A program made the position numbers and the translations under genes. From a virus: a DNA stretch of 36,406 nucleotides. Location: IMG/VR virus record IMGVR_UViG_3300027917_000013. One strand, written 5' to 3'. The number at the start of each line of letters is the position of its first letter. Positions within the stretch are counted from its first letter, which is position 1. Positions 7,586-33,536 of this stretch are shown here, piece by piece. The notes beneath the pieces were generated by a model, which searched no databases, was not told the DNA's origin, and saw nothing but the letters and a program-made list of their open reading frames with translations.

Positions 7586-9637
7586 TTACCTGTATTCTTG
7601 AATCCTGCTTGCCAGTTTCCAAGCAAACTCCTCAAAATCCATATCGGACACAATTTGAGCCCCGGGGATGCTTACATTTATATTTGTCCCTGGGGGAGTC
7701 TCCCCTTGAGGGGTAACCGTTACAGTTTCCCCCCGGGTTGCCATAAAATTAACCGGGACCCTATCAATGCCCGGGCTCCCCTCAACAAGGAATTGCCCGC
7801 CGAATTGCATTTTTACTTTATTGTGTACCAAATGATTATAAACAAAATAAGATTGCGTTTTTGCAACTGAAAAAGTATATACCTTGCTCTTTCCAACACA
7901 AGGAATTATCCCTTTGATTTCATCAAATCCGCCCTCAACAAGCATAATTTTATTTTCTTTTGTAAGGTCCCGGGTTTCAACCCAACCCGCTTTTATATCA
8001 AACCAAGGATGCTCCGGGGAGCAAATAAAACTTGAGTCGTTGAATATAACCTCAAGTAAATCATCCCGCTCAAATTGGAATATTTCCGCTACCTCATTCA
8101 TTACAGGTTTTTCAAGGTTTTCATCATAAGACCAAACCAAATCCCCAACCTTGATTTCCTCAATTACCTTAAACCCGGAATAAATGTTAACGAGGGTCCC
8201 AGGGGCAAAGCAACCCCCGCCTCCCCCGTCCCCCTCGTCTTTCTTGTCGTCTCCCCCATTGTCCCCGCCTCCCCCGGGTATTTTCTTTAAATCATCAAGC
8301 CCTTTAACATCAAGCTCAATTGGGATATAAATACTTTCGGGTAATAAGTCAAATTCGTTTCCCAATTCAAGCAAATCATCAACAACGTCATTTACCGCGG
8401 TCCCTTGGTCCTCCCAATCCCGCTCAAGACGGGCAAGGGCAAGTTGAGCCTTGACGGTATCGGAGTCAAGTCCCCCAATCTTGGTTGCAACCTCAACAAA
8501 GATTGACTCAAGCTCGGGCAATTCCTCTTCACTCGCCTTTTTATAAGCCTCGTTAAGATGCTCCATTGCCTCCGCCGCGAGTCTCGCGTCCGTTACCTTT
8601 TGCAAGGACAACGCAAGGTTGCGGGTCTTTTGCTCCGCCTCCCCCGCCTCTTTATTGGTTGTCTGCAATCCCTTGTTCCAACCGTCAATTGCGGTATCCC
8701 CCATTTCAAGAGCTTTATTTAAAGCAAGTTGCGCCTTTTGCGCGTTATATTCCTCCTCGGTTAAACGATAAAAATAAATTGGCATATCTTTAACCGCGTC
8801 CCGGTATTCCTCAATCGTATTTGTTGACTCAAGAAATCTTTGATTTTGCTCTTTGGTTGCATCAATTACCGCAAATATCCCGTCAAGCCAAGGATTCGCG
8901 CCCTCCGCAACCCAGGTTGCAAACCCAACTTTCAAATCATCCATTGTTGCATTAAAACGGTCCAAACTTGAGGTTGCATTAAATCCCGCTTCATCAAGCG
9001 CGTTAAGTTTTCCTTCCGCCTCCTCCATTGTCGCAATAAGGAATCTTGTTTGACGGTCCGCCTCCGCAATGCCGTCATTTGCAAGTTCCTCCATTCGTTC
9101 CTTTACTTTCGCGCCTGAAATCCCGAACGTATCAAGCCTTAATATTGATTGGTTGGCAAGCAAAAGGGTAAATTCCTCAAACGCCTCTTTGGGTCCCTTA
9201 CCCATTGTTGCCCCAAGCGTTGTTGCAATGCGGGTCAATTTCGCGGCTTCATCCGCGTTTTCCGCAAGCCCCATTGACAATAAACGGGTTGCGTTTTGCA
9301 TCGCGTCCATTTTTGAGATTGTCCCCCCGGTTGCATCTTGGACCGCGTTTAACATTTCCTCCGCCGCGCGCCCTCCGCCCGCGTACGCTTTAAGGGCAAC
9401 CTCGGACCGTTGCGCGGCAATCCCCATTTCGTAAAGCTCGGGCAATGCTTTGATTGCGGACATTCCCAAATTTACGATTTGGTTACCCGCTCCGAGCATT
9501 ACCCCATCAAGAATAGAAAATTGACTCCCGGTCTTTTCGCCTTGTTTCCCCAGGTCCTCAAGGTCATTTTTAACATCCTGGGACCCGGTCCCTTGTTTTA
9601 CTACTCTTAAGATAATATCAAGTAAGGATTTGGACAT
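7586..9637 (-). CDS. Tape measure protein with a C-terminal Hint/BIL domain
   Basis: 683 aa, directly downstream of the G/GT chaperone pair, with its start overlapping the upstream stop as TAATG. The N-terminal roughly 450 aa are Ala/Glu/Leu/Lys-rich and look helical. A Gly/Asp linker, an intein-like block and a 77-aa tail follow. Confidence 0.8.
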   Translation of the reverse strand: MSKSLLDIILRVVKQGTGSQDVKNDLEDLGKQGEKTGSQFSILDGVMLGAGNQIVNLGMSAIKALPELYEMGIAAQRSEVALKAYAGGGRAAEEMLNAVQDATGGTISKMDAMQNATRLLSMGLAENADEAAKLTRIATTLGATMGKGPKEAFEEFTLLLANQSILRLDTFGISGAKVKERMEELANDGIAEADRQTRFLIATMEEAEGKLNALDEAGFNATSSLDRFNATMDDLKVGFATWVAEGANPWLDGIFAVIDATKEQNQRFLESTNTIEEYRDAVKDMPIYFYRLTEEEYNAQKAQLALNKALEMGDTAIDGWNKGLQTTNKEAGEAEQKTRNLALSLQKVTDARLAAEAMEHLNEAYKKASEEELPELESIFVEVATKIGGLDSDTVKAQLALARLERDWEDQGTAVNDVVDDLLELGNEFDLLPESIYIPIELDVKGLDDLKKIPGGGGDNGGDDKKDEGDGGGGGCFAPGTLVNIYSGFKVIEEIKVGDLVWSYDENLEKPVMNEVAEIFQFERDDLLEVIFNDSSFICSPEHPWFDIKAGWVETRDLTKENKIMLVEGGFDEIKGIIPCVGKSKVYTFSVAKTQSYFVYNHLVHNKVKMQFGGQFLVEGSPGIDRVPVNFMATRGETVTVTPQGETPPGTNINVSIPGAQIVSDMDFEEFAWKLASRIQEYR
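7820..8212 (-). other. Hint / bacterial intein-like (mini-intein-sized) domain inside the tape measure protein (residues 476-606)
   Basis: Intein blocks are readable. Block A is CFAPGTLVNIYSG. Block B is FICSPEHPWF. Block F is KVYTFSVAKTQSYFV. Block G is NHLVHN, followed by Lys at the +1 position. Confidence 0.7.
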
Positions 9638-10322
9638 TATTTGCGCCTTGGTTTATAACTGGGATGCTTTGCGCGCCATTCCGCAAAGTCTTTATCAACC
9701 TTTTTCCTATGCTCAACAAACCCCGGTAAATCATAAAGTAAAGCCCGGACCAAATCAATAAAATCATTTGGTAATTGGTCAACGTCCCAGGGAGCAACAA
9801 ACGGACCCCCAAGCGCGGTATTGACCATTCTTGCAATTTCAATATTGGATACCTCCGGGTTGCTTGTGTAACCGCTCCGAGCGGTTTGCAAAAGGTCTAA
9901 TTCAATTTTTTTTTGTAATGCTCCCGGTATTCTTGGAGCATATTAAAAGACCGTTTTTGGATAAACTCCCACAAAGCGGGGTCATCCTCAATCAAGTTTT
10001 CGGCAAGCTCTTTAACCTCCGCCTGGGTCCAATGGGTTTCCTCGTTTTCCGCTTGACTCCAGTTGTCCGCAAGCCAAGCATAATATTTGTCATTGATTGA
10101 CTCAATGGTCCCGGTAATTTGTTTCAATTTCTCAACATTGTCCGGGTCCGATTCTTTGAGCTTGCCAAGCGCGGTATTGAGCCCTTGTCTTATCGTTTCC
10201 CGCTCTTGCAGTTTTTCTCGGGTTGGATTAACCCAAACCTGGATTACCGCGCCCGCATACTCGGGAGCAAAATCCGCAAGGTCCAAAGGTCTTACAACTT
10301 TTTTATATTGTATTTTCATCAT
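9637..10322 (-). CDS. Tail assembly chaperone G-T fusion made by -1 programmed frameshift (about 228 aa)
   Basis: The -1 frame is open from the A9 run (9906-9914) through to the stop at 9637-9639. I read no stop between the slip site and the 84-aa ORF listed in the track. Confidence 0.65.
9897..10322 (-). CDS. Tail assembly chaperone (gpG-like)
   Basis: 141-aa acidic ORF just upstream of the tape measure gene, preceded by AAGAGGAGTCAA-ATG. It ends ...HYKKKLN*, with the Lys codons forming AAAAAAAAA. Confidence 0.7.
   Translation of the reverse strand: MMKIQYKKVVRPLDLADFAPEYAGAVIQVWVNPTREKLQERETIRQGLNTALGKLKESDPDNVEKLKQITGTIESINDKYYAWLADNWSQAENEETHWTQAEVKELAENLIEDDPALWEFIQKRSFNMLQEYREHYKKKLN
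9906..9914 (-). promoter_or_regulatory. Slippery sequence A_AAA_AAA for -1 ribosomal frameshifting
   Basis: The minus strand reads CAT TAC AAA AAA AAA TTG AAT TAG. Nine consecutive A residues lie 2 codons before the gpG-like stop, and the downstream ORF is in the -1 frame. Confidence 0.65.
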
Positions 10323-12055: not shown

Positions 12056-12590
12056 CGCTCAAATCCTCCGTAATCCTATCAAGGGCAAGCATAAATTGTT
12101 GCCTGATATACGCGCCCGATTTCCGATAACCTTTTTGCATAAATCGCCTTCCCTTTATCCCTTTTCGAGCAATGGACCGGGCGATTACATAAGCAACCCC
12201 AGGGACCTTTTTTTTGGGGACCTTTAACCTTATTTGTACCCACCTATACAACGCGGACGGGGGAGGCATTTTACCGGGACGCCTCCCAAACTCCATTACC
12301 GCGGGGTATTCCTCTTTTTCAAGCGTTGAGCCAACTTTACCAACAATGTTTGACCCGTAACCCGAAACCTCGGATTTTATTGAGCCCTTAAGCCTCCCAG
12401 TTACCCCGGTTGGGACAAGCGGGACAATTTCCGCTTGCAGTTTGAAAACGGATAATTGCATTGCGCGCCTTAAATGCTTATCCGTAATATCATCAAACAT
12501 GGTAAGTTTGGCAACCTGGGCGGAAATATCTTGCATATTCAAGGAATACCCAACAAGGTTTTCTCCCGTCTTGACTCCCTGTAACCTCAT
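12045..12590 (-). CDS. HK97 gp10-like head-tail joining protein
   Basis: 181 aa. The segment IVPLVPTGVTGRLKGSIKSEV resembles the P.dTG.L..S motif of the HK97 gp10 family. It lies in the neck module. Confidence 0.55.
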   Translation of the reverse strand: MRLQGVKTGENLVGYSLNMQDISAQVAKLTMFDDITDKHLRRAMQLSVFKLQAEIVPLVPTGVTGRLKGSIKSEVSGYGSNIVGKVGSTLEKEEYPAVMEFGRRPGKMPPPSALYRWVQIRLKVPKKKVPGVAYVIARSIARKGIKGRRFMQKGYRKSGAYIRQQFMLALDRITEDLSVGN

Positions 12591-13591
12591 TTGCCAAACC
12601 TCCGCGGTTTCATGTACTCCGCTTTTACCCGGTCAAGGACCTTGTTGGGAAATTCATCCATATAAAAGACTTCGCCCAATTCAATGTTTGCAGTTTTGCC
12701 CGCATAATTGGAGTCCTCTTTGCCGCGCATCAAACTCGCCATTTGCTTACATAGATATTTAACGTCAAACGGTACAACGTAACGGGATACCGTTTTACTC
12801 GTATGAGCCGCGGCAACCGTCCCATTTGCTCCGCGCTCAACGGTAAAAGTACGATAAATGTAAATGTCCGTTGTGTCCGCGTGGGTTGTCCGCTTGGTCT
12901 TATTCCAACCCCGAGTAACATATAAATCATTTCCTTGAATGTCCAAAATCCGCATTTGCTCAAAATCGATTTTGATGATTTCGCCAATGTTAAACGCGGT
13001 CCCGTCCCCGGTTGTTATGTCCTCCTCGGACGCGTCCAATGCCTCCGCAAGGTTTACATTTGAATCGGTTGCGGACCCGTAACCCGTTACAAATTCTTGC
13101 TCAGTTTCCACAAGTAAAACCGCGCCCGGGTATATCTTGCTTGCATCATCAACAACCATTGCCGCGGTTGAATTATCCGCCTGGGTTGTTGTTGCTCCGG
13201 TATCCTCAGTTTCGGAATACAAACCCCATGAGCCAACAATTGCAACAATGTCCTCCTCCCAGGTCCAAGCGTTGAGGGTAAGCGCGTCCGGGTCAATCCT
13301 TATCCGCGTATAAGGTCCGTTGTCATACCATTTATTTCGGGGGTAAAGCAAGTAATCCGTTGTGTCCAATGAGTCCCCGTCATCGGTAATACTCGTTACG
13401 CTTAAGATTGGGTCAACGGTTAAATCAATGTCCCCGGTCCCGTCAAACCTCTTTGTCCCAACAATCGGGGTAAAGTTTCCTATATTCGTTTCAATCCATT
13501 GGGACGCGGAGCGGACAAAATCAAGCAAGTCCCCGGGCTTATCGGCTCCAAATCCTTTAACGTCCTCAATCGTGCAATATGCCCGCGTCAT
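12587..13591 (-). CDS. Head-tail adaptor/connector-like protein (enlarged)
   Basis: 334 aa. The N-terminus MTRAYCTIEDVKGF... resembles gp6-like head-tail connector starts. It is the first gene of the neck module. Assigned from position and a weak motif. Confidence 0.45.
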   Translation of the reverse strand: MTRAYCTIEDVKGFGADKPGDLLDFVRSASQWIETNIGNFTPIVGTKRFDGTGDIDLTVDPILSVTSITDDGDSLDTTDYLLYPRNKWYDNGPYTRIRIDPDALTLNAWTWEEDIVAIVGSWGLYSETEDTGATTTQADNSTAAMVVDDASKIYPGAVLLVETEQEFVTGYGSATDSNVNLAEALDASEEDITTGDGTAFNIGEIIKIDFEQMRILDIQGNDLYVTRGWNKTKRTTHADTTDIYIYRTFTVERGANGTVAAAHTSKTVSRYVVPFDVKYLCKQMASLMRGKEDSNYAGKTANIELGEVFYMDEFPNKVLDRVKAEYMKPRRFGK

Positions 13592-13875
13592 TTCTCGTAA
13601 TCCTCAAGCCTCTTAACTAATTCCGCTTTTTTCCCAACCTGGGGGAGCCCACGCGCGGCAAGCTCAATTTTCAACTGGGGGACGGTCATTTTTTTGTAAT
13701 CGGGGGTTAAGATTGCTTTATGAGCCGGGGGAGCCTCAAGACCTTTTACCTTAAAACAACCGGGCGCGTCATTCATTAAAAATTCCGCGTGTAATGGGTC
13801 AACCTCAATTTCATCCCCTTTTTGGTATCTTTCCATGCGGTTTATATATTCGGATATAACCAAAAGTTTCGTCAT
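13588..13875 (-). CDS. SAP-domain protein
   Basis: 95 aa. The C-terminal MTVPQLKIELAARGLPQVGKKAELVKRLEDY is a textbook SAP / HeH helix-extended-helix motif. ATGA overlap with the next gene. Confidence 0.65.
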   Translation of the reverse strand: MTKLLVISEYINRMERYQKGDEIEVDPLHAEFLMNDAPGCFKVKGLEAPPAHKAILTPDYKKMTVPQLKIELAARGLPQVGKKAELVKRLEDYEK

Positions 13876-15279
13876 TTACAACCTCCGATAAAAACCAAAT
13901 TCGCCCTCGGGGGGGACAATGCGGTTTGCATCAAGCCAAACCTGAAACGGTTTTGAATGGTCAAAATGTTGGGGCATTGTGTCTTGTTGCCCAAAGTTGT
14001 TGTGAAAATAAAAAAGCCCGTCCGGTTTCAGTAATGCAAGCCATTTATCAAGCGTTGTCATCAATTCACCCGGATGAATATGCTCGATAACATCAACCGC
14101 AACAATCAAATCATATTTGAGCCCAACATTAATATAATCTTGATAGCAAGTATGGTCCCAAAGCAAAACGTTTTTATCATCCTGAAACCGGGTCATCATA
14201 AAATCACGTAATACCCCGGGCAATTCATAAACGTCAACCTGATTTGCTCCCCGCAAAACCTCAACCTCCCCGCCAATACCCCCGCCAACTACCAAGACCT
14301 TTTTATCCTTTATCTTTCGCAAGGGGTTTATGATTTGATGGTAAAACGGGGAAACATTCCATGCCAGTAAATCATATAAATATCCGTTTTCCTCGCGCCC
14401 GTAAAACTCGCGGTATTCCTCGGGGGTTTGCGGGTTTGCTTGCTCGAATGCGTTGCGGGTAAATTCGGTTCCCTTTACCGCGTAAGCAATAACATCATCC
14501 TGGGGGACCCCGGTAAAATCGGATATAAGCTCAACCAATGACAGGTAATCTTGCCATTTATCCCAAATGCCCGAAATCCTGATTTGCTCTTGATAGGTTT
14601 GCCAACCCGTTACAACCCGGGAAATATGCCCCGCTTTTACGCTCGTTGTTGAGCCAATCTTAAATTTGTATTTACCCCCCGCCTCCCTTGAAAATGCCAT
14701 ATCTTCACTTGTCCCCCCATGCCTCGGATACCAAAACCAATCAAACCGCTCGAGCGGGACCCCTGGGTTGTCATTCAAGATAGTTTCAAAAACCTCCCGC
14801 CTTATCAAAACGCAATGCAACCCAACTGCCGCGGTTGTTTCGGTAAAGTTGTCTTTCCAAACCAAGCATTGCATCAAATCCCCGAGCGTTGATTCCTTAA
14901 ACCAAATTGCCTCCGGGGGGAATCCCCGCCTTGTATAAAATGCCTGGAAAATGTCAAATTCAAAACCCTCGGGGACGGTCCGCAAGTCCTCAACGAAACC
15001 GGGACCAAATGACGCGTCCGAATCCAAAAAACAAAGGGTATCGTTGTTGCTCCGCAAGAATCCCCTTACAACCTCATTTGCCGCGGTATGAGCAACCCGG
15101 TCCTTGGCAATGATAAACGAGTCCCCCGTCCTCAACCCGGTTGTTATCAAATGGGACCAATCGGTTACAAACTGGGACTCAACGAGTTTTTCAAGACGCG
15201 TTGCAACACATATTGAGCCCCAATCAAGGGGAGCGGTTGCTTGCTCTTTGTTTACCTCATAATCAACTTTTGTTTCCAT
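13876..15279 (-). CDS. Glycosyltransferase (GT-A, DxD) fused to a class I SAM-dependent methyltransferase
   Basis: 467 aa from ATG 15279, preceded by AAGAGGAGTCAAAAGATT. The N-terminal half has CFLDSDA (DxD) and GTSEDMAF motifs and looks paralogous to the 268-aa GT. The C-terminal half has VLVVGGGIGGE (motif I), DLIVAVDVIEHI and LKPDGLFY. The ORF-track start at 15357 is a TTG that runs through a hairpin. Confidence 0.7.
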   Translation of the reverse strand: METKVDYEVNKEQATAPLDWGSICVATRLEKLVESQFVTDWSHLITTGLRTGDSFIIAKDRVAHTAANEVVRGFLRSNNDTLCFLDSDASFGPGFVEDLRTVPEGFEFDIFQAFYTRRGFPPEAIWFKESTLGDLMQCLVWKDNFTETTAAVGLHCVLIRREVFETILNDNPGVPLERFDWFWYPRHGGTSEDMAFSREAGGKYKFKIGSTTSVKAGHISRVVTGWQTYQEQIRISGIWDKWQDYLSLVELISDFTGVPQDDVIAYAVKGTEFTRNAFEQANPQTPEEYREFYGREENGYLYDLLAWNVSPFYHQIINPLRKIKDKKVLVVGGGIGGEVEVLRGANQVDVYELPGVLRDFMMTRFQDDKNVLLWDHTCYQDYINVGLKYDLIVAVDVIEHIHPGELMTTLDKWLALLKPDGLFYFHNNFGQQDTMPQHFDHSKPFQVWLDANRIVPPEGEFGFYRRL

Positions 15280-15301
15280 AATCTTTTGACTCCTCTTTTT
15301 C

Positions 15302-15351
15302 GAGCGGGGGAATTGGAGGAGGAGGAGTCCAAACCTCCGCTTCCCCCGCTC
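15302..15351 (-). promoter_or_regulatory. Large GC-rich stem-loop between the 143-aa gene and the GT-MTase gene
   Basis: There are perfect 11-bp arms, GAGCGGGGGAA (15302-15312) and TTCCCCCGCTC (15341-15351). An inner GGAGG/CCTCC pairing adds to the stem. No U-tract follows on the minus strand. Confidence 0.5.
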
Positions 15352-15355
15352 TACC

Positions 15356-15382
15356 AAATAAGCGCGCCGGGGGTTGCGCTTA
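15356..15382 (-). terminator. Weak intrinsic-terminator-like hairpin at the stop of the 143-aa gene
   Basis: The minus-strand RNA reads UAAGCGCAACCCCCGGCGCGCUUAUUUGG. This gives a 6-bp AAGCGC/GCGCUU stem, a 10-nt loop and a U-rich trail. Confidence 0.35.
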
Positions 15383-15811
15383 ATTTGGGTCTAATTGGAC
15401 AAACAACAACGCGGTAAAGTCATTGGTATTTGTGGGAGCCATATTGGTAGTACTGGTATATGAAATCCCCAAACCCTCGCCCGCGGAAAACGTCAAAACG
15501 CCCGGGCGTATGCTTGCATAACTTTGTTGTGTGTTTGCGGTTGATAGGACGGGCGCGGGGTATCCCGATTGTGCAAATTCGGTCCCGTCTTTTTGCGCCC
15601 GGAAAGTTGCGGAATCAACTGTAACCTCCGCGCTTGCCTGTACTGAAATACCAACAACGCTCCCGCCCTTTGGCATGACAACCAATGTGTTTGTATAGGT
15701 TGCATCGCTCGCGGTCAAGTCGGTATTGGTTTGGTTTGTTACGGCATTTGCAACCCCAAAAGGAATTGCAATAATCCCGCCGTATTTACCCGCGTTAAAT
15801 TCATCGCCCAT
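15380..15811 (-). CDS. Hypothetical virion protein (possible capsid decoration protein, by position)
   Basis: 143-aa Ser/Thr/Ala/Gly-rich ORF directly downstream of the major capsid gene, with GAGGAG 8 nt upstream of the ATG. Confidence 0.6.
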   Translation of the reverse strand: MGDEFNAGKYGGIIAIPFGVANAVTNQTNTDLTASDATYTNTLVVMPKGGSVVGISVQASAEVTVDSATFRAQKDGTEFAQSGYPAPVLSTANTQQSYASIRPGVLTFSAGEGLGISYTSTTNMAPTNTNDFTALLFVQLDPN

Positions 15812-15870: not shown

Positions 15871-17229
15871 TTACGAATAGTTAATACCATGTATGCCCGC
15901 GGTGTGGTCCTTACCCCGAGCGGTTGAGTCCCCGTTGTCTTGACAAGCAATTGCCTCGCGGAAACTCAACACCATGATATACAATCGTTTCCTGATATCG
16001 CGGTCAACCTCAATTAAGAGGTTGCGCTTAAAGCCTACTTTCCACATATCGCGGTGTACAAGGGCAATTTGCCCCTCGTCATTGCTTGCCGCGGTTGCGG
16101 AAACTTTACCATCATCCTCGGCAAGAGGCATGGATGCGGAAACAACAATTGGTATCCCGTCCATGCGGGCAAGCTCGCCCGTTAAGATGGTTGCTTGCGG
16201 TCCGTATTTGTCCAAGGTCCTTACATTGGTTAAGCTCAATAGGCTTATTAGATAAGTTTTGACATTTGTGATTGCCGCGATTCTCCCGGGGTCAACCCCG
16301 TACTTGCCCATTCGAGCAATACCCGCGCGCCATTCCGCGTCATCAAGAGTCGAGTCAACGTCCGTTGATTGCCCGGTACGGTCAACAAGGTAATAATGAC
16401 GAATCCCGTCTTGTCCGTTGCTCAAGTAATACGAGTCGGTTGGAGGGGTTGCATCATCAAGGTTAATATTCCCGGTTGCGGTTGCGGTTGCATCGGCATT
16501 GAGGGCAAACGCGTCCATTGCCTCCGCTCCGCTCCGCCTCAACTCCTGGGTTAAGGTTGGCAAAACTGCAATAACCGCATCCTCATCAAGGTCATAAGCC
16601 CAGTTTACCTCCGCGATATTTTCAGTTGCGGTCATTGTGGATTTTGCGGTTGCGGGGTTTTGCGCGTCCGTTGCTTCCCCAACCGTCCCTTTTCTCCACG
16701 TTATAGACCCCCAACCAACCGGGAAGTCAAACGGGTCCGAGGGCATTGCAATCGGGGTCCCAAACAAACCAACAACTCGGGACATTAAGAAAAAATCCTC
16801 CCATAGAGTCGCGGCAAGTTCAGTTGGCACATATTCATCCCCCGCGCCCGCGGTGGTTGCATCAAGCAATTTTGTCATATCATCGGATAAGGGTTTTGCG
16901 CCCTTGGGGTCAAGCTCCCGCGCCCGTTTGATGAATTGCCCCGCAAATAAAACATCGGACAATTTGCGCCCGTAAAACTTATTTGCGCGGTCCTCAACGT
17001 AACCTTGCGCCTCCGCTTTGAAACCATCGGGACCAACCCAATCCCCTTTTCGGACCGGGGTTTTATCCTTTTGAGCGTCCGCTTTTTCTTGTACCAAAGC
17101 ATCAACTTTCCCGCTCAATTCCTCCGCGAGTTTGTCAATGTCAATAGTTGTGCGGTCCTCTTTATGCTCTTTTACAACGGTTGTTAATTCTTGAATTGAT
17201 TGAATCAATTCATCCTGTTTATCCGTCAT
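15871..17229 (-). CDS. Major capsid protein, HK97 family
   Basis: 452 aa following the prohead protease. It has a charged, coiled N-terminal delta-like region and then a core (…GAGDEYVPTELAATLWEDFFLMSRVVGLFG…) typical of HK97-fold capsid proteins. Confidence 0.8.
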   Translation of the reverse strand: MTDKQDELIQSIQELTTVVKEHKEDRTTIDIDKLAEELSGKVDALVQEKADAQKDKTPVRKGDWVGPDGFKAEAQGYVEDRANKFYGRKLSDVLFAGQFIKRARELDPKGAKPLSDDMTKLLDATTAGAGDEYVPTELAATLWEDFFLMSRVVGLFGTPIAMPSDPFDFPVGWGSITWRKGTVGEATDAQNPATAKSTMTATENIAEVNWAYDLDEDAVIAVLPTLTQELRRSGAEAMDAFALNADATATATGNINLDDATPPTDSYYLSNGQDGIRHYYLVDRTGQSTDVDSTLDDAEWRAGIARMGKYGVDPGRIAAITNVKTYLISLLSLTNVRTLDKYGPQATILTGELARMDGIPIVVSASMPLAEDDGKVSATAASNDEGQIALVHRDMWKVGFKRNLLIEVDRDIRKRLYIMVLSFREAIACQDNGDSTARGKDHTAGIHGINYS

Positions 17230-17965
17230 TGTTAAATTCCTCCGTTAAGTCTTGTATAACATTTGATAAACTGTCAATTACCTCGGGGGGTAATTCCGTT
17301 TCACTCGCGTCGGGTATTGGTTCATTTGTGTTTGGTTCAACGTCATTATCCTCGGGTAATTCTGAAACGGGGTCATCTTGCTCCCCGTCATCATTCGTTT
17401 GTGTTTCCTTAAGCAATTCATCAAGCGTTTTAAGGGCAAGCCTCAACGCGTCTTGGTTTGCGGGTATTGTTACAATGCTTGACTCCAACATTTCCCATTT
17501 TTTGTAAACCCGTCCCCGTTGCAAGGGCTCCCCAGTTTCATCGGTACGCTTTTCCCATTCAACCGGGATAAACCCAACTGACATTGCATTTAAAAATCCC
17601 TTGTCCCATAAATCCCTTACAAGGTCCGCCTTGGCATTAATGCCCCGCTCAATAAACTGAAAGACCTTTTTGACTCCCTTACCCGGTATCAAGGAAACCT
17701 CAATTGCTTTTGCGACAACCGCGCCCGGGTCATAATAGTTATGCCCAAAAAGGATTACCGGGTTTTTATAATAATTGGTAAGGTCCGCGCCCTCCGCAAG
17801 TAATATATCCCCGTCCCGGTCAACTGATTCAGTTGAAACCATTGCCTCATAAATGCCCGCCTCGGGGTCAACCGCTTTTGATTCAATTACAAATGTTTTA
17901 CGTAATTTAACGTTACCTTTTTCAATCATTGCGTTAAAAAACGATTCGGTATTTGCGTCATTCAT
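17219..17965 (-). CDS. Prohead protease, HK97 / S78 family
   Basis: 248 aa. The sequence MVSTESVDRDGDILLAEG...PVILFGHNY matches the conserved N-terminal core of HK97-type prohead proteases. It lies between the portal and capsid genes. Confidence 0.8.
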   Translation of the reverse strand: MNDANTESFFNAMIEKGNVKLRKTFVIESKAVDPEAGIYEAMVSTESVDRDGDILLAEGADLTNYYKNPVILFGHNYYDPGAVVAKAIEVSLIPGKGVKKVFQFIERGINAKADLVRDLWDKGFLNAMSVGFIPVEWEKRTDETGEPLQRGRVYKKWEMLESSIVTIPANQDALRLALKTLDELLKETQTNDDGEQDDPVSELPEDNDVEPNTNEPIPDASETELPPEVIDSLSNVIQDLTEEFNNDG

Positions 17966-20082
17966 TCCTCAACCTCCGGTATCATCACACATAAACAATT
18001 GATAATATTGCCCGGGCTCCCGTTTGGGTCCCCTGGGTATTCCAATTGCTCATTGCCAACAACAAACATTTCATTGATTCCAACTCTTTGGTTATGCGCC
18101 GCGGCATGTTCGTCGCGCGTCCTCCCTGGGAGCAATGCGGAAATCCATATTTTCTTTTTGACAACCTCGGATTGGTCCCATGCTTGTTGGTCCGCAAAGT
18201 TGCTTGCGCCCGTCATTGTTGTCCTTGCAATACGCTCCGTTTGATAATCCGATTTGCGCCCGCCAAAGAAATTATTGATACGCTCTTGCATTGACGGAAT
18301 ACCCTCCCCCGCAAGCTCGGACTCTTGGATTATACCAATTAACCCGTTCCATGTTGTATCATTTACCTTTTGGGCAACCGTCCTTAATATATGCTCAATG
18401 CCAGTCCTTACAAGGGGAGCGTCAACGTCAAAGAGTAAATCAATCCCGAGCCCGTCAAGCTCATTTTGTCCAACCTGGGCAACCGTCCCTGCAACTGGGG
18501 GACCAAAACGCTTTATAAATTCGTCAACCCATTGCTCAAAATCAAATAAGTCCTCGGGGGTTGGAATCCGCTCGGGCTCCCGGGATTGAAACTTGCCGCG
18601 CCCGTAAATGCGGGAATTGCGGAGCCTTGCGTTAATTTCGTTTTGTTGGTCTTGGAAATAACGCTTAAGGGCGCGCCTCATGGAGTCAACTTGCTTGTCA
18701 ATTTGTTTTTGAGCCTTGCCCCAAATCGCCTCATGTTCTGCGCTTCCGTATTCGGGACCAATCATTTTATTTTTGGGGTCATTGATTCCCAGGTTATCAA
18801 CCCGAGGAGTAACAAACGCGCCCGCCTCCGAAATCGGGACCAAATTAACGGGAATATATCCAATGTCCCCGCCCTCAACCTCGGGCAAACCCAACCCCAG
18901 GTATTCGTTAAGCTCATTGACGGGATACCCCCGGTTTGCCAAGCGGTCAAGTTGGTCAATCTTGCTTGTCTTGTCCTCTTGCAACTGGGGAATCATTGTC
19001 AAGTTGGTCCTTACCTCAAGACCCCGCTCAATCTTGTTGTTTTTGCGGAAAAAGCGGGTTAACCCGTCATCCCTGAAACGGATAAGCGGGACAAGCGTCA
19101 AGGTCCACAAAACCCGGTCCGCGGTGTCAAAGTTTTCATAAGTATCCCGCCCGTAACCCATGATTTCATCGGGGACCCCGAAAAGCGCGCCCACCTCGTC
19201 GCGGTTAAACTTGCGTTGCTCCAACCATTCAACGTCTTTGGGAGGAAATGAAAAGGGCTTAATATCTGTAACCCCGTCCTCAAGTATGATTGGTTTATGC
19301 AACCCCTCCCCGGTCCCATAATCCCGCATAAGCTCATTCATATATTCATCCCGCTCAGTTTTGGTCAAACCATTGGGAGCAATCAAAGCATAATCCGGGC
19401 GGGCTTGATTGCGAAAAAATAACCGGGTCCATGCTTGCGCCAATTGGTCAATGATAATACCAATGCGGACCGCGGTAATGGGAGCAAGCCCGCGCCAAGG
19501 GTTGAGCGGGTTATAAAACTTGAAATGTATAAACTCCTCCGGGTCAAGTATGTAATCCGGTCCGTAACCGTCATCAATCTTGTAACCCGCAACCTTGCGG
19601 TACCTTTTTCCTTTTTTCTCGGGTTTTACATGGAATATATGAGGCTCCCTGGGATACATTTCAAGGATTGCATTTTGCGTTTGGTTCATTACCAATTCAA
19701 CCCCTTGCTCCCCGCCAAGCATCATATTAACAACCCATTCCCCCCAAAAATCCGCTTGTGACATTTCCTCATTGGGATAATCCAAAACGTCATTCAAAGG
19801 ATGATTATCCTTGGTTTCGTAACTGTCCCCGGTTTGCTCAACAACATTTATATCAAGCGGAGCAATCGAATCCTTGAGGACCTTGATTGCTTTGTGTACC
19901 CAAGTTTGGGTTTGATAGAAATCCGCATTGCCCAAGAACGTCCCCCGAGCAACCCCCCGCTCCTCCCCGCTCATTATCCGCATGATTGGCAACCTCCATT
20001 GCAAATCGGGATGCAAATCATACAATGGGGAGGGGTTGGTTTGTTTGTTTACCCGGTCCGTTATTCGTTTCAATATACTCAT
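17962..20082 (-). CDS. Portal protein fused to a MuF-like (SPP1 gp7-like) minor head protein domain
   Basis: 706 aa. The N-terminal roughly 430 aa are portal-like by position and length. The C-terminus has MuF hallmarks: RIARTTMTGASNFADQQAW, WISALLPGRTRDEHAAAHNQ and PGDPNGSPGNIINCLCV. Confidence 0.75.
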   Translation of the reverse strand: MSILKRITDRVNKQTNPSPLYDLHPDLQWRLPIMRIMSGEERGVARGTFLGNADFYQTQTWVHKAIKVLKDSIAPLDINVVEQTGDSYETKDNHPLNDVLDYPNEEMSQADFWGEWVVNMMLGGEQGVELVMNQTQNAILEMYPREPHIFHVKPEKKGKRYRKVAGYKIDDGYGPDYILDPEEFIHFKFYNPLNPWRGLAPITAVRIGIIIDQLAQAWTRLFFRNQARPDYALIAPNGLTKTERDEYMNELMRDYGTGEGLHKPIILEDGVTDIKPFSFPPKDVEWLEQRKFNRDEVGALFGVPDEIMGYGRDTYENFDTADRVLWTLTLVPLIRFRDDGLTRFFRKNNKIERGLEVRTNLTMIPQLQEDKTSKIDQLDRLANRGYPVNELNEYLGLGLPEVEGGDIGYIPVNLVPISEAGAFVTPRVDNLGINDPKNKMIGPEYGSAEHEAIWGKAQKQIDKQVDSMRRALKRYFQDQQNEINARLRNSRIYGRGKFQSREPERIPTPEDLFDFEQWVDEFIKRFGPPVAGTVAQVGQNELDGLGIDLLFDVDAPLVRTGIEHILRTVAQKVNDTTWNGLIGIIQESELAGEGIPSMQERINNFFGGRKSDYQTERIARTTMTGASNFADQQAWDQSEVVKKKIWISALLPGRTRDEHAAAHNQRVGINEMFVVGNEQLEYPGDPNGSPGNIINCLCVMIPEVEE

Positions 20083-20222
20083 AATTTAATACCCATTTCA
20101 TAACCCTCGATTAATGCCGCGACAAAGTATTTACAAAGTTTAACCGTTGCCCCGGCAATTATCCCCAAACCAATCGGTATTAAAGCAAACAACCAACCAA
20201 GCGCGGATTTGATTTTTGTCAA
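20079..20222 (-). CDS. Small single-TM peptide (47 aa, TTG start), absent from the ORF track
   Basis: My hand translation is (M)TKIKSALGWLFALIPIGLGIIAGATVKLCKYFVAALIEGYEMGIKL. GGGAGG lies 8 nt upstream. The TTG overlaps the TGA of the 894-aa gene, and the stop overlaps the portal ATG as ATGA. This fills an otherwise unexplained 136-nt gap. Confidence 0.45.
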   Translation of the reverse strand: MTKIKSALGWLFALIPIGLGIIAGATVKLCKYFVAALIEGYEMGIKL

Positions 20223-22903
20223 CGTTTGTGCCTCCCGCGTAATTTGTTGTAACGATTACCTGGGACCCCCAACTGATTCAAACGGTCATACCGTAATTTT
20301 CGTTTTACCCATTTCCGGGGTTGCTCCTCGGGGGTAACAATATCAATGTCAACCAATTCCCCAAGGATAACCGCGTCAAGTACATTAATTGATAAATCCC
20401 CGCCCGATAAAACCAAAACGTTTATTGCATCGGCAACCGTTACATTATCCGTTACCCCGATTTGCAAAGCATCCGGTAACAAGAGGCTTGCCGCGTCCGC
20501 AACCGTCAAACCATCAAGGGCTTGAATAAATAATAAGGTTGCAAGGTCAATTTCATCCGCAACTGTAACCCCGTCCGTTTCCGATATTTCGAGTTTGAGC
20601 GGGTCCAAGTTTGCCGCGTCCGCAACGGTAACCCCGTCCTCAACGTTGATATAAAGGATGCCCTCAACCGGGATTGATACGTTTACCGCATCGGCAACCG
20701 TTACCGCGTCCGTTTCAAATATCTCAATCAATAACGGGTCAACCTGGGCAATGTCCGCAACCTCAACCCCGTCCGTTACATCAACTTGCAACGGGGTCAT
20801 TGTTACGCTTACAAATTCATCAACGGTTAACCCATCGGAAACATTGACATATATAACACCCTCAACCGGGAGGTTGACGTTGATTTCCTCCCCAACCGTT
20901 ACACCCTCCGCAATCGCGATTTGCAACGCGTCCGGTAATGATACGCTTACAAATTCGCCCAGGTCAACATTGTCCGCAACGTCAATCCTTATGGGTATTT
21001 CAACGTTTGTAAACTCCCCGAGAGTCAACCCCTCCGCAATCGCGATTTGTAAAGCATCGGGCAAAATGACGTTGATAAATTCGGCAAGCGTTGTCCCGTC
21101 CGTAACGTCAATTTGTAAAGCATCGGGCAAGGTTACGTTGATGATTTCGCCCAGGTTTACCCCGTCCGTTGTACTGATTTCGAGCTTGATTGCTCCTACC
21201 TGGGCAATGTCCGCAACGGTCAACCCGTCAAGCTCGGCAATCTGTAAAGCTCCCATTTCGAGGTTAACGATTTCCGCGATTGTTACCCCGTCCGTTTTGC
21301 TTATCTCAAGTTTGATTGGGGCAACTGCAACGATTTCGGAAACGATTACCCCGTCCGAAACCTCAATTGTTAGGTTTGCCTCCCCTGGGATATTGACGTT
21401 GACAAACTCGGAAACGGTCAACCCATCGGTTTTATTTATCTGTAACGCATCGGGGAGGGTTACGTTAACAAACTCCCCCAGGTTGATGTTATCGGATACG
21501 TTTACCTCAAGTTTAATTGGTCCAATATTGACAAACTCCGAAACTGTAACCCCGTCCGTTTCCGATATTTCCAAATTGGATAAAATGACGTTGATGATTT
21601 CCCCAAGGTTTACCGCGTCCGAAACATTGATTTGCAGATTACCCAAGCGGACCGTTACCAATTCGCCAAGCGTTATCCCCTCGGTTTCGGATATAAAGGA
21701 TTTGAGCCTTGCGGTTACTTGCTCCCCCAGGGTTACTCCGTCCGTTTCAACAATCCCGGCAAGTTTGGTTTCAACCGTTACGATTTCGTCAACCGTTACC
21801 CCGTCCGTTTCCGAAACGGATAAATCCCCGCCCAGGTCCAAAGTATTGAAATAAATATTGCTCCCGTCCGTAAATATGTACCCAATTTCATTTGAGCTTG
21901 ACGGAGGTTTTTCAACCATTAACCGGGTATATGTTCCGGTTTCAATTGCTCCCCCATCGGTCCAACCGCTCCCGGTATTATAAATGTAATGAACGTCCGC
22001 GCTTGTATCTATATAAAATATATATTGGTCCGTCCCAACATAAAGCGCATCAAGTAAATATTGTCTATTGGTAGATACTACGTTGTAACCTGTATCCGAT
22101 AAAGTATCAACGTCCGCGCCCTCATAAATGTTGTCATTATTATCCGCAAAAACAATCCAAGGGGTTGTGCCTGAAACGTCAATTGCCATGCCTGCACTTG
22201 CTTGGTCCGCAACCCCCTCATCCTCGGTTCCCCAGGTTCCGCTTGTCCGCTTGCGGTAATAACCGTCCTTATCGTTTGTTGTTTCAGTATAAGATGATGA
22301 ACCACTATAAACAACGTGCGGGTCATCTGCGGTGTCAAGGACCATATCAACCATATTACAATGTTCTTGTATATCGGTTGCGCTTACTTTTTCTTGGGTT
22401 GCCCAAGATGCCCCGGTCCGGTTTGAATAATAAGGGTGTCCGTATGTTGTACCCTTAATTTTTAAACCCATTGTTGTTAAAACGTGAGGTTTGTCATTGC
22501 TATCAATCCAAATTCTTATATCCCCGTAAGTTGTAAATGCCAATAAACCATCAACAACAATACCAACTGATTCCCAAGACCCCAACCATGAATCGGTTCC
22601 GGTATCATATACCCGATAATAAAGAGGGGTTGCAAAAGGTAAACCAACAACAACGTGAATATCATCCGTTGAATCAATTGCCGCGTCCATTGCAGTAAAT
22701 TCTTCATCCGCGCCAACAATGTCATTATCTGTAACGGTTGATTGCAATGACGGGGAAGTATCAACATTTTTATATATCCGAAATTCGGGGTATCCGTATG
22801 TCCCTTTTGTACCTCCCGGGACAATAGCATACCAAACCCCGCCCGAGGTTTTAACAACCGCTCCGCGCAAATCTAAACTTGCCGCGTTGATTGTGATTGC
22901 CAT
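20219..22903 (-). CDS. Large virion-associated repeat protein with a propeller-like N-terminal domain, 23 tandem repeats and a basic tail
   Basis: 894-aa ORF. The N-terminal roughly 355 aa show a recurring D..D.PHVV / G..W pattern suggesting beta-propeller blades. Residues 364-856 are tandem repeats. The last 38 aa contain 13 Lys/Arg. Confidence 0.85.
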   Translation of the reverse strand: MAITINAASLDLRGAVVKTSGGVWYAIVPGGTKGTYGYPEFRIYKNVDTSPSLQSTVTDNDIVGADEEFTAMDAAIDSTDDIHVVVGLPFATPLYYRVYDTGTDSWLGSWESVGIVVDGLLAFTTYGDIRIWIDSNDKPHVLTTMGLKIKGTTYGHPYYSNRTGASWATQEKVSATDIQEHCNMVDMVLDTADDPHVVYSGSSSYTETTNDKDGYYRKRTSGTWGTEDEGVADQASAGMAIDVSGTTPWIVFADNNDNIYEGADVDTLSDTGYNVVSTNRQYLLDALYVGTDQYIFYIDTSADVHYIYNTGSGWTDGGAIETGTYTRLMVEKPPSSSNEIGYIFTDGSNIYFNTLDLGGDLSVSETDGVTVDEIVTVETKLAGIVETDGVTLGEQVTARLKSFISETEGITLGELVTVRLGNLQINVSDAVNLGEIINVILSNLEISETDGVTVSEFVNIGPIKLEVNVSDNINLGEFVNVTLPDALQINKTDGLTVSEFVNVNIPGEANLTIEVSDGVIVSEIVAVAPIKLEISKTDGVTIAEIVNLEMGALQIAELDGLTVADIAQVGAIKLEISTTDGVNLGEIINVTLPDALQIDVTDGTTLAEFINVILPDALQIAIAEGLTLGEFTNVEIPIRIDVADNVDLGEFVSVSLPDALQIAIAEGVTVGEEINVNLPVEGVIYVNVSDGLTVDEFVSVTMTPLQVDVTDGVEVADIAQVDPLLIEIFETDAVTVADAVNVSIPVEGILYINVEDGVTVADAANLDPLKLEISETDGVTVADEIDLATLLFIQALDGLTVADAASLLLPDALQIGVTDNVTVADAINVLVLSGGDLSINVLDAVILGELVDIDIVTPEEQPRKWVKRKLRYDRLNQLGVPGNRYNKLRGRHKR
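20336..21814 (-). repeat. Coding tandem repeat array (23 degenerate units of 15-25 aa, mostly 19-25)
   Basis: Units include SETDGVTVDEIVTVETKLAGIV, SDNINLGEFVNVTLPDALQIN and VTDGTTLAEFINVILPDALQIA. I parsed 23 units by hand. The periodicity also produces a 398-aa shadow ORF on the plus strand. Confidence 0.85.
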
Positions 22904-23337
22904 TATTCAACAACCTCAACAAACTTATATGAGCAATCGGGGAATTGCTCATGCCAGTATTTCGAGTCCTCAACCATCTTTGGGGGATGCGGTTTACAGG
23001 TTTGCTCCCAAATCCAATGATAGGTTGAGCCATAAAGCGCGCAAGTCATATCATCCTTTAAAAACGGGCATTGAGTATTTCCGGGTTTGTGCAAACCGTT
23101 TCCCCATTCATAAGGGTATTCAAGTCCGTCAACGATTGCAATCCCGCTCATTTGGATTTGCAACCGCTCCCCATCTTTGCCAGTTACCCCGCAAAGTTGC
23201 GATTGCGGGAAAGATTTATGATAGTCCTTTGCTTGCCAAGCGCGGTATTGCTCCGGGGTATTCTTACCCCAGGGATTCTCCCCATTGGTCCCGCAACATT
23301 GCCCGCAAAGGTTACACTCGCCAACGCGCTTAAACAT
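22903..23337 (-). CDS. CxxCxxCC-family (YkgJ/UPF0153-like) Zn/Fe-S protein
   Basis: 144 aa with ECNLCGQCC near the N-terminus and QCPFLKDDMTCALY later, which is the signature arrangement of the CxxCxxCC family. The stop overlaps the next ATG as TAATG. Confidence 0.65.
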   Translation of the reverse strand: MFKRVGECNLCGQCCGTNGENPWGKNTPEQYRAWQAKDYHKSFPQSQLCGVTGKDGERLQIQMSGIAIVDGLEYPYEWGNGLHKPGNTQCPFLKDDMTCALYGSTYHWIWEQTCKPHPPKMVEDSKYWHEQFPDCSYKFVEVVE

Positions 23338-23341
23338 TCAC

Positions 23342-23584
23342 TTAATCCTTTGGGTTGAAAATCGCGGTTGCTTTTATTCCGTCCTCAACTTGAATACCCA
23401 GGGTTGGGGGGTTTTGGTCCGCCTCAACCGGGACATAAACGTTGATGGTATAAGCATTGCAATTCCCAAGACCCGGGACATAAATACCAATTTCATGGTT
23501 TTTACTCAAAGAGCGGACCATTGCAACCCCGGGGATTGCCTCAACCGCTTTTAACAAGTCCTCATATTTCAAATCATCCGTCAT
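23342..23584 (-). CDS. Hypothetical protein
   Basis: 80-aa ORF starting immediately after the GT stop. No family recognised. Confidence 0.65.
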   Translation of the reverse strand: MTDDLKYEDLLKAVEAIPGVAMVRSLSKNHEIGIYVPGLGNCNAYTINVYVPVEADQNPPTLGIQVEDGIKATAIFNPKD

Positions 23585-24391: not shown

Positions 24392-24941
24392 AATATGATT
24401 TGTCCTCCCGCCTCTTGATAAGTATTACCTCCATATTTCCGGTTGGGTCCCAACTGGGGGAATCCCCGATTGGTCCCGCAATTTTCCAAGGTTTCGGACG
24501 GTAAAACTTGTAAAGCAAGCCCTTATCCTTAACATGTAAGGGGTCAAAATACAACCATGTATTTTCATTCAAAAAGTTGATATGAGTCGGGTCTTGGAGC
24601 ATTCCTGGGCTTGCCCCATGAGGGCATGAAATGGCAAATTGCCCGTCCGGTTTCAGGATGCGCCAAACTTCATCCATAAACTCAACGAATGGGAATCTTG
24701 TCCCCTTTTCCGTTATGGCAACCGGGGGGATATGCTCAACCAAATGAGAGCAAACCGCGCGTATCGCGCAAGCATCGGGCAAGGGCTCCCAGGGATGAAT
24801 ATTTATATCCCAAATAATATCAACCCCCGGGAGCTTTTGCACATCAAGCCCAACCCAATCCGGTCCTTGCTTGTTTGCTCCGCACCCAATATCAAGTTGA
24901 ATCCCGCTTGCATCCGCAAGTAAACGCTTTATATCATTCAT
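24384..24941 (-). CDS. Class I SAM-dependent methyltransferase
   Basis: 185 aa from ATG 24941, preceded by AAGAGGAGTCAACTT. Motifs are LDIGCGANK (motif I), CSHLVEHI and ILKPDGQFAI. There is no DPPY/NPPY-type DNA-MTase motif. The ORF-track start at 24986 lacks an RBS and overlaps the upstream gene. Confidence 0.7.
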   Translation of the reverse strand: MNDIKRLLADASGIQLDIGCGANKQGPDWVGLDVQKLPGVDIIWDINIHPWEPLPDACAIRAVCSHLVEHIPPVAITEKGTRFPFVEFMDEVWRILKPDGQFAISCPHGASPGMLQDPTHINFLNENTWLYFDPLHVKDKGLLYKFYRPKPWKIAGPIGDSPSWDPTGNMEVILIKRREDKSYYE

Positions 24942-24972
24942 AAGTTGACTCCTCTTTTGAGATGTAAACCGT

Positions 24973-33534: not shown

Positions 33535-33536
33535 CA

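Follow-up and report, generated by a model that had tools for sequence, protein, structure and literature searches.

The chlorovirus PBCV-1 protein A064R combines glycosyltransferase (GT) and methyltransferase (MT) domains in the order GT-GT-MT, and its MT domain acts on the capsid glycan by methylating the terminal rhamnose (PMC9614988). In WsaE of Geobacillus stearothermophilus, where the order is MT-GT-GT, the MT domain 2-O-methylates the terminal sugar and thereby caps the S-layer glycan chain (PMC2943079). For tailed phages, two papers describe, in cluster O mycobacteriophages, an O-methyltransferase gene that precedes three GT genes modifying capsid and tail-tube proteins (PMC11600133, PMC12619734), and Che8 gp110 and Corndog gp38 are given as mycobacteriophage virion glycosylation genes (Freeman et al. 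2023, as cited in PMC12363180, PMC11600133 and PMC12619734). Here, we focus on the IMG/VR virus record IMGVR_UViG_3300027917_000013, a stretch of 36,406 nt referred to in full as the window, in which a single gene for a 467-aa protein joins a GT-A glycosyltransferase to a class I S-adenosylmethionine (SAM) methyltransferase. Two folds, conserved catalytic-type motifs, a kept gene position, a permutation of the domains and alternative tailoring partners are established for this protein family. The reading that we favor, with a probability of about 45%, is that the fusion makes a methyl-capped sugar on a major virion protein, for which we infer the acceptor, the donor, the order of the reactions and the benefit.

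The gene and the parts of its product are the following:

13876-15279, minus strand: GT-A / class I SAM-methyltransferase fusion gene, 467 aa, stop codon at 13876-13878 (from the open reading frame call, Shine-Dalgarno sequence, homologues and AlphaFold2 model)
14575-15228, minus strand: predicted GT-A glycosyltransferase domain, about aa 18-235 (from the model, Foldseek and Pfam matches of the family)
15016-15024, minus strand: DxD motif D86-S87-D88, just past strand beta4 (aa 81-85/86)
14701-14706, minus strand: E192-D193 ("SED") at the start of helix 192-203 (DSSP), both residues at least 90% conserved
14314-14574, minus strand: all-helical linker or N-terminal extension of the MT domain, aa 236-322 (DSSP helices within 238-322), with invariant Y300, W307 and N308
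13879-14313, minus strand: class I SAM-methyltransferase Rossmann core, aa 323-467 (from PF13489, PDB profile matches and Foldseek)
14269-14286, minus strand: MT motif I, G332-G-G-I-G-G337, the SAM-binding loop, with G332, G334 and G336 invariant

The longest open reading frame (ORF) at this locus is 13876-15357 (-), which would yield 493 aa from an in-frame TTG at 15357. The ATG at 15279, which gives 467 aa, was preferred because a GAGGAG Shine-Dalgarno sequence lies 8 nt 5' of it and because homologues start near there. The AlphaFold2 model of the full-length protein has a predicted local distance difference test (pLDDT) score of 93.3 and a predicted template modelling score of 0.87; it is globular and soluble, and the sequence is without a hydrophobic segment. 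Full-length relatives number 133, at 39-72% identity, and every one of them is metagenomic. Neither tblastn of the fusion against 50,697 GenBank phage records (E 1e-3) nor blastn of the fusion region against GenBank phages returned a match, and by these sequence searches the family is without a relative among cultured phages.

For the N-terminal half, the window protein alone gave a Pfam GT2 match below threshold (PF00535, 13.3 bits against a cut-off of 23.3, E 0.079). Therefore, the GT identity was checked through the Pfam matches of the family, a structure model and a fold search. Among 53 homologues, PF13632 was matched by 20 (best 1e-7) and PF00535 by eight. The model of residues 1-240 alone reached a pLDDT of 91.7 and shows, together with the Foldseek results, a single Rossmann-like alpha/beta/alpha fold of the GT-A type: the best 50 matches in the PDB are all GT-A glycosyltransferases, with template modelling (TM) scores of 0.44-0.57, led by the collagen hydroxylysine GT domain of LH3 (E 2e-7) and followed by B4GALNT1, mimivirus R699, COLGALT1 and the ppGalNAc-Ts. 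Among the predicted viral structures in BFVD, GT-A proteins from uncultured tailed phages matched best (E 3e-15, TM 0.67-0.71), and one BFVD match is annotated as an FkbM methyltransferase multidomain protein. Both aspartates of the DSD motif, D86 and D88, are invariant across the 53 homologues. The motif sits at the C-terminal end of the fourth strand (81-85/86), and it aligns with the DED of STIV A197 and with the EHD of a family to which a 268-aa protein of the window belongs (see below). When the PDB was searched with the GT domain, as a sequence and as a profile, nothing was matched but STIV A197 (2c0n), which the N-domain profile found at a marginal E of 0.099 and with the DxD region aligned. 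E192-D193 would provide a candidate catalytic base, a role that we assume from GT2-type enzymes in general. By its model and alignments, the N-terminal half thus qualifies as a predicted GT-A glycosyltransferase with GT2-like character.

The C-terminal half is recognized by Pfam Methyltransf_23 (PF13489) over aa 320-427, with 29.8 bits against a cut-off of 27, and the same entry is matched by 52 of the 53 homologues. The family profile found cyclopropane-fatty-acid (CFA) synthase (5.5e-7) and phosphoethanolamine N-methyltransferases (PEAMT) in the PDB, while Foldseek with the full fusion model gave MT matches at E about 1e-6 to 1e-7. The best MT matches, CFA synthase, PEAMT and UbiG, are small-molecule or lipid methyltransferases. 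In addition to the invariant glycines of motif I, the acidic E352 at the end of MT beta2, right behind strand 347-351, is at least 90% conserved. The helical linker segment accompanies the MT core even in relatives with reversed domain order (HMM positions 6-225; HMM, hidden Markov model). The original prediction, which had been read from this DNA alone, is in agreement with these results in several respects: its ORFs and coordinates are correct by the ORF listing, and all the motifs that it quoted from the fusion (CFLDSDA, FYTR, GTSEDMAFSRE, VLVVGGGIGGE, DLIVAVDVIEHI and LKPDGLFY) were found. Its 467-aa two-domain enzyme was recovered as a GT-A N-terminal half (AlphaFold/Foldseek, invariant DSD) and a class I SAM-methyltransferase C-terminal half (Pfam above the cut-off, invariant GxGxG, Rossmann-fold matches). 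Moreover, the alignment that it had named as a test showed intact catalytic-type motifs, with the DxD and GxGxG invariant and the ED and the acidic residue of beta2 conserved in at least 90% of the homologues.

The domain composition of the relatives bears directly on what the two halves do for one another. The GT-domain profile, searched against 1.84 billion representative proteins, gave 3918 relatives (418 at E<=1e-10), with GT alone, GT-MT and X-GT as their architectures. GT-only proteins of 255-257 aa, without a methyltransferase, fill the slot of the fusion in three loci (L049-L051; such L-numbers label loci on related contigs). The reversed order, MT-GT, was found in 17 full-length proteins of about 455-480 aa that belong to other phage lineages (two of four genome-scan loci and 15 IMG/VR loci). 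These have an N-terminal MT of the same subfamily as that of the fusion (HMM E 1e-43 to 1e-53) and a C-terminal GT2 domain, for which PF00535 exceeds its cut-off, with 24.4-26.8 bits, in four of six proteins scanned. Gene-by-gene inspection of two loci, L059 (where the reversed fusion is at 7881-9281 and has a 132-aa protein as a neighbor) and L063, placed it between the capsid gene plus a gene of about 135 aa and the head-tail adaptor. In the X-GT proteins sampled, X was a sulfotransferase in four, three of which pass the Pfam cut-off, and another GT2 in one, both typical sugar-tailoring partners. In these proteins (P0261, P0265, P0270, P0263 and P0271), the GT-A subfamily forms the C-terminal part and is preceded by a sulfotransferase domain (PF13469, up to 8e-10) or, in P0271, by the other GT2. 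Two X-GT contexts were retrieved: in L091 the downstream gene matches a virion-structural PHROG, and in L092 two genes match phage families without known function. The sulfotransferase-GT sequences suggest sulfated as well as methylated phage glycans. An MT-only gene of the MT subfamily of the fusion was not present in any of 70 loci, while the GT does occur alone. Because the GT is fused to its partner in both orders, stands alone where the MT never does, and has an MT slot that can be swapped, the product of the GT would be what the partner domain then modifies.

In L059 and L063, a radical SAM enzyme of about 264 aa is encoded directly 3' of the reversed fusion, between the capsid genes and the adaptor (L059:9271-10065 (+) and L063 about 9400-10195 (+)). 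It has a CNAKCVFC motif and a SPASM/twitch-type C-terminus, and its NCBIfam matches are a tungsten-cofactor radical SAM maturase (7e-19), spiro-SPASM (2e-15) and a twitch radical SAM family (2e-11). It is an enzyme of the peptide- or protein-maturase type within a phage head module.

The minus strand of the window holds one unbroken morphogenesis block. It begins with the small and large terminase, a 164-aa protein, a 200-aa MT-like protein, a 268-aa protein, proteins of 80 and 144 aa and an 894-aa protein, and continues with the portal, an S78 prohead protease, the 452-aa capsid protein, a 143-aa protein, the 467-aa fusion, a 95-aa protein, the head-tail adaptor and the neck and tail genes. 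The immediate surroundings of the fusion are these:

15871-17229, minus strand: major capsid protein (MCP), 452 aa with an N-terminal scaffold-like segment (phrog_1623, virion structural, 2.9e-6; follows the S78 prohead protease; synteny); candidate acceptor
15380-15811, minus strand: Ser/Thr-rich 143-aa protein following the MCP, putative decoration or auxiliary head protein; candidate acceptor
13588-13875, minus strand: 95-aa small head-module protein with a DUF7210-like N-domain and a C-terminal SAP domain (27 distinct homologues in the same slot)
13594-13701, minus strand: SAP domain, aa 59-94 (PF02037, E 1.4e-15, 56.9 bits against a cut-off of 23.9, profile positions 1-36 of 37)
12587-13591, minus strand: head-tail adaptor, 334 aa (phrog_442, 1.5e-8; synteny); downstream boundary of the unit

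Window proteins were mapped onto 57 loci from IMG/VR and four from species genomes. The latter are all contigs of metagenome-assembled genomes on each of which portal, capsid or tail genes were recognized, and the fusion family is confined to phage-like contigs. With 37 of 40 distinct GT-bearing genes located directly 3' of a homologue of the 143-aa gene, itself behind the capsid gene, and with a 95-aa homologue and then the adaptor directly following in 24 of those 37, the fusion gene is a conserved resident of the head module in a lineage-wide arrangement. The original prediction had the enzyme splitting the capsid and neck modules. This view is to be abandoned: the order MCP, 143-aa, GT(-MT) is kept in 37 of 40 loci, and the GC content of the fusion gene is that of its surroundings, with no sign of insertion or recent acquisition. 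What suggests the late control proposed for the GT and MT genes is their common strand and tight packing; a promoter and terminator scan of the window yielded background level only, and a stem-loop 3' of the 143-aa gene was no better than shuffled sequence (z -0.96).

A different position was seen in three phages with other capsid genes (PF05065-type or Mu gpT-type). There, the fusion is found behind the neck genes, directly upstream of a conserved protein of about 268 aa, which is followed by chaperone-like and tape-measure-sized genes and is, because of these followers, a putative tail tube. The 268-aa gene 3' of the fusion in L003 (fusion at L003:10001-11365) was considered as a member of the family encoded at 23585-24391 in the window and rejected, as it is this conserved putative tail-tube protein.

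The 143-aa protein has no match in Pfam, PHROG or NCBIfam. Its family has a conserved Ser/Thr cluster at aa 117-131. A search of the PDB with the family profile gave nothing meaningful; weak matches to carboxylase biotinyl-domain regions (E 0.15-0.65) hint at a barrel-sandwich fold. Distant homologues (28-33% identity) lie behind the capsid gene in phages without any GT, in L085:2030-5309 (+) and in L086-L090, and in L085 the 143-aa-type domain is found in three adjacent proteins of 592, 133 and 348 aa.

The gene of the 95-aa protein begins on the very next base behind the stop codon of the fusion, and its end shares 4 nt with the start of the adaptor gene. The canonical SAP motif that had been read at its C-terminus is genuine by its PF02037 score. 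Its assignment to the enzyme cassette, on the other hand, was not upheld. The 27 distinct homologues have an N-terminal domain of about 45 residues (weak DUF7210 match), mostly followed by "APPxDKM" and a short basic tail. A SAP-like C-terminus was found in just two of them, those of the window and L037, while L001 has an AT-hook (GRPRGRPRKK) and L017 KAKAA repeats. In L003, a 162-aa protein with a helix-hairpin-helix C-terminus lies between the capsid genes and the adaptor, with the fusion several genes further downstream; its N-terminal segment resembles the 95-aa family by eye, and phmmer mapping gave no link. Neither in L003 nor in L006 and L007 is the fusion adjacent to a small protein of the 95-aa type. 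By these sequence comparisons, the 95-aa protein is best regarded as a conserved small head-module protein, unrelated to the enzyme, with an interchangeable C-terminal tail that is probably DNA-binding.

From its folds and its position, the 467-aa protein would be a soluble, late-expressed and bifunctional glycan-building enzyme of the virion assembly program. The GT-A domain, with a metal bound by the DxD motif, would transfer a sugar from a nucleotide-sugar to a major, repeated virion protein, and the fused class I MT would then O-methylate the transferred sugar, leaving a methyl-capped glycan on the particle surface with possible benefits in surface shielding, stability or adsorption. The capsid protein, its companion and the tail tube come into consideration as acceptors because, across three capsid lineages or more, the gene lies beside the surface proteins that are most abundant on the particle. 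In the lineage of the window, the likeliest acceptor would be the 143-aa MCP-associated protein or the capsid protein, and in some other lineages perhaps the tail tube. Also counted for a virion protein as acceptor is that the top PDB matches of the N-domain (LH3, COLGALT1, mimivirus R699 and the ppGalNAc-Ts) are protein O-glycosyltransferases. The head surface, which had been proposed as the target from the placement of the gene, is favored by the 37 of 40 loci in which the gene follows the MCP-associated 143-aa gene, and is questioned by the three lineages in which it adjoins a putative tail-tube gene; the gene order thus makes the head the likeliest target, though not the only candidate. 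The methylated sugar adduct of the original prediction is likewise favored, in its case by the occurrence of both fusion orders and of the MT never without the GT, and would be the expected product.

Several observations weigh against this reading. The Pfam GT2 match of the window protein by itself is below threshold, the prominence of protein O-glycosyltransferases among the PDB matches partly reflects their number in the PDB, the acceptor cannot be told from a GT-A fold, and gene position is merely circumstantial as a guide to it. Since distant 143-aa homologues exist in phages without any GT, the 143-aa protein does not need the enzyme. Its Ser/Thr cluster has about 7 such residues out of 15 in GT-carrying phages and about 4 in GT-lacking ones, a weak difference confounded by phylogeny; this comparison, too small and too confounded, was discarded as evidence for the acceptor. 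No cultured phage among the GenBank phage records has a homologue of the fusion. Finally, protein N-terminal methyltransferases are weakly matched within the family (PF05891 in 6 of 53 members, best E 6.4e-6; NRMT2 by Foldseek), and the fusion MT could methylate protein instead of sugar.

These last matches also speak for the two domains acting on virion proteins independently, the GT on Ser/Thr (or Lys) and the MT on side chains or N-termini, as do the presence of NRMT2 with peptide and of 6dub in the Foldseek list of the fusion model and the reported host-enzyme-dependent methylation of a mycobacteriophage tail protein (PMC13445384). We regard such a division of labor as quite improbable, as the MT subfamily never occurs without the GT while the GT does occur alone, the exchange of the MT for a sulfotransferase or a second GT follows the logic of sugar tailoring, and the closest MT matches (CFA synthase, PEAMT and UbiG) act on small molecules or lipids. 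It is unlikely, if somewhat less strikingly so, that the product is a non-virion glycoconjugate made late in infection, such as a host envelope polysaccharide or teichoic acid serving superinfection exclusion or release, or a soluble methylated sugar. Polysaccharide or lipid-linked acceptors are the commonest for GT2-like domains, PF13632 and PF00535 are matched across the family, and WsaE works on a lipid-linked glycan prior to its transfer onto protein (PMC2943079). This is in contrast to a fusion protein that is without a hydrophobic segment and modeled as globular and soluble, whose gene is part of the operon for head or tail morphogenesis in three capsid lineages or more, and whose window yielded no gene for a flippase, a polyprenyl-phosphate transferase or the synthesis of sugar-nucleotides.

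A role in DNA hypermodification, with the GT glycosylating a modified base before or during packaging and the SAP protein bringing the DNA, is suggested by the DNA-binding-type SAP motif encoded right after the fusion and by phage GT-A enzymes that glycosylate 5-hydroxymethylcytosine and share the R...DxD...ED pattern (bioRxiv 10.1101/2023.12.21.572611). We consider it very unlikely and have demoted it because Pfam and PHROG scans of the larger ORFs of the window recognized no hydroxymethylase, 5mYOX/TET or cytosine-5 (C5) or other DNA methyltransferase gene. The fusion MT is itself outside the DNA methyltransferase families, TarP and JGT, which were reported as the best homologues of DNA GT-A enzymes, are absent from the 50 best PDB matches, and the SAP tail is limited to 2 of 27 small-protein homologues, with the fusion located away from the small protein in L003, L006 and L007. 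As for one or both domains being catalytically dead and the protein serving as a structural or assembly factor, the sub-threshold GT2 score of the window protein would fit, and yet DxD, ED and GxGxG motifs and an acidic residue of beta2 that stay invariant or nearly so among homologues of 39-72% identity would be unexpected in a pseudoenzyme, and we give this idea next to no credence. A methyl-capped sugar on a major virion protein thus continues to be the reading that we prefer.

A second set of GT and MT genes is found in the window at 22903-25467 (-), between the terminase and the 894-aa protein. This cassette consists of the 164-aa protein, the 200-aa class I MT, the 268-aa remote GT-A protein, the 80-aa protein and a 144-aa CxxCxxCC protein (PF03692, weak), and its two enzymes are:

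23585-24391, minus strand: 268-aa remote GT-A homologue, the second GT (family of >1443 clusters; hhalign to the fusion N-domain)
24384-24986, minus strand: 200-aa ORF (185 aa in the protein database), class I MT, the second MT, adjacent to the 268-aa GT

The two GTs of the window had been described as collinear and apparently paralogous. The first part stands as remote homology: hhalign of the fusion N-domain to the 268-aa family gave E 5.6e-5 and a probability of 66% over 160 collinear columns at 17% identity, pairing DSD with the invariant EHD and FYTRRGFPPE with YYTRxxPSEP, while the pairing of GTSED with GTSD was not resolved. Recent paralogy is not supported, since BLASTP of the fusion with the 268-aa GT gave no significant match. 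Given the BLASTP result, the collinear alignment at 17% identity and an N-domain in L048 that matches both family HMMs (7e-17 and 9e-8), the sequences indicate that the two are distant members of one superfamily rather than recent duplicates. The 268-aa family has a weak Pfam GT2_3 match in 3 of 33 members; its profile found nothing meaningful in the PDB, and tblastn of the 268-aa GT against the same 50,697 GenBank phage records (E 1e-3) gave no match. The 200-aa MT is below the Pfam threshold alone (18.9 bits), and BLASTP relates it to the fusion MT domain at E 0.001. Its family comprises 1580 clusters, in which some members have Pfam Methyltransf_11/23 matches or are named class I SAM methyltransferases. 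The 200-aa and 268-aa families occur on the same contigs, the pair is adjacent again in L001, and each has about 1500 clusters, ten times the number of the fusion. With the second METHYLTRANSFERASE, the genome is predicted to hold two GT+MT sets, one fused and one as neighboring genes. The count of two GT and two MT domains made in the original prediction is thereby confirmed, the second MT being supported via its family.

Further genes of the window were noted in passing. The 706-aa portal at 17962-20082 (-) ends in a fused Mu F-like domain (PF04233, aa 592-701, 1.5e-8), as does that of L001. The 894-aa protein at 20219-22903 (-), which separates the second cassette from the portal, was matched by nothing in Pfam, PHROG or NCBIfam; in L001, its position is taken by a relative of 600 aa. 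In tape-measure position, the 683-aa protein at 7586-9637 (-) has a HINT/pretoxin-HINT domain at aa 474-601 (PF07591, 2.4e-10), and the 744-aa tape-measure protein of L005 has a weak Hint_2 match. A GH25 lysozyme gene (PF01183, 3.4e-16) at 27344-28204 (-) is directly upstream of the small terminase gene on the strand of the structural block. On the plus strand are a 280-aa protein resembling PAPS reductase (phrog_424, 2.7e-33) at 1188-2030 (+) among non-structural genes, a 438-aa protein at 31603-32919 (+) with a domain like Gp3-type recombination directionality factors (PF18897, 7e-13) and a 282-aa DnaD/replisome-organizer-like protein (phrog_6251, 2.5e-19) at 33528-34376 (+). No polymerase or nucleotide-metabolism gene was recognized in the Pfam and PHROG scans of the larger ORFs of the window.

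To our knowledge, a few mycobacteriophages are as yet the only tailed phages with demonstrated virion glycosylation by enzymes of their own; in these, the modification alters antibody recognition. If capsid or tail proteins of the present phages are glycosylated and methyl-capped, surface glycans would be common among environmental phages and no peculiarity of mycobacteriophages, with a bearing on adsorption, particle stability, grazing, immune recognition and engineering for phage display or therapy. Tentatively, and with more doubt than conviction, one can go further and imagine that phages of several capsid lineages hold a modular "virion glycan" toolkit inside their morphogenesis operons and that methylated and sulfated coats are widespread. 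The parts of such a toolkit may be one GT-A subfamily and, as exchangeable partners, an MT on either side of it, a sulfotransferase or another GT, joined in one lineage by the neighboring radical SAM/SPASM enzyme. With a single compact polypeptide and a small candidate acceptor of 143 aa, the question is testable in E. coli without phage culture.

In relation to the systems described so far, the GT domain of the fusion has its best structural matches in the LH3 GT domain, COLGALT1, mimivirus R699 and the ppGalNAc-Ts (E 2e-7 to 1e-5, TM 0.5-0.57). The collagen and GalNAc transferases depend on Mn, have the GT-A fold and attach sugar straight to the side chains of proteins. With 8-14% identity and no lectin, hydroxylase or accessory domains in the fusion, this is a resemblance at the level of the fold that does not fix the acceptor. 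STIV A197 of an archaeal virus (PDB 2c0n) is a viral GT-A protein with an aligned DxD motif, differing in its single domain and matched at an E (0.099) that is not significant. The phage DNA-hypermodifying enzymes (Pyle et al.) have the GT-A fold and the R...DxD...ED pattern in common with the fusion; however, they are clustered with C5-MT/5mYOX or hydroxymethylase genes, whereas the neighbors of the fusion are the MCP, the 143-aa protein and the adaptor. As for the mycobacteriophages, the sources cited above describe tailed-phage GTs (with an adjacent O-methyltransferase in cluster O) acting on capsid and tail-tube subunits, which are the two neighbor classes of the fusion; as described there, these systems differ in their separate genes, actinobacterial hosts and glycans at subunit C-termini. 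Neither the fusion nor the 268-aa GT showed homology to GTs of the Che8/Corndog type in the tblastn search of the 50,697 GenBank phage records (E 1e-3).

Further close parallels are the enzymes that unite GT and class I MT domains in one polypeptide, as A064R and WsaE do and as the fusion does, with both orders among its relatives. Like the fusion, A064R is soluble, encoded by a virus and built of several domains, with a class I SAM MT behind the GT part, whose first domain (D1) is of GT-A type with a DXD motif. The MT of A064R O-methylates the sugar that its GT domains have attached to the glycan of the major capsid protein, and PBCV-1 has a second, separate MT (A061L), as does the genome of the window. 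The likeness is one of architecture: A064R belongs to a eukaryotic giant virus, is expressed early, has three domains and extends an existing N-glycan, in contrast to the one GT and one MT of the phage fusion, encoded within a late morphogenesis operon. WsaE, similar in architecture too, is a soluble fusion of MT and GT domains working on a glycan bound for a protein lattice, with the MT-first order of the reversed phage variants; it differs in being cellular, in its lipid-linked glycan and in its two GT domains. The fusion has no relatives in cultured phages and would fit both the known viral GT+MT glycan-capping enzymes and phage virion glycosylation. The reading that a sugar is added and then O-methylated would match three precedents, namely A064R, WsaE and, as its sources describe it, the system of the cluster O mycobacteriophages.

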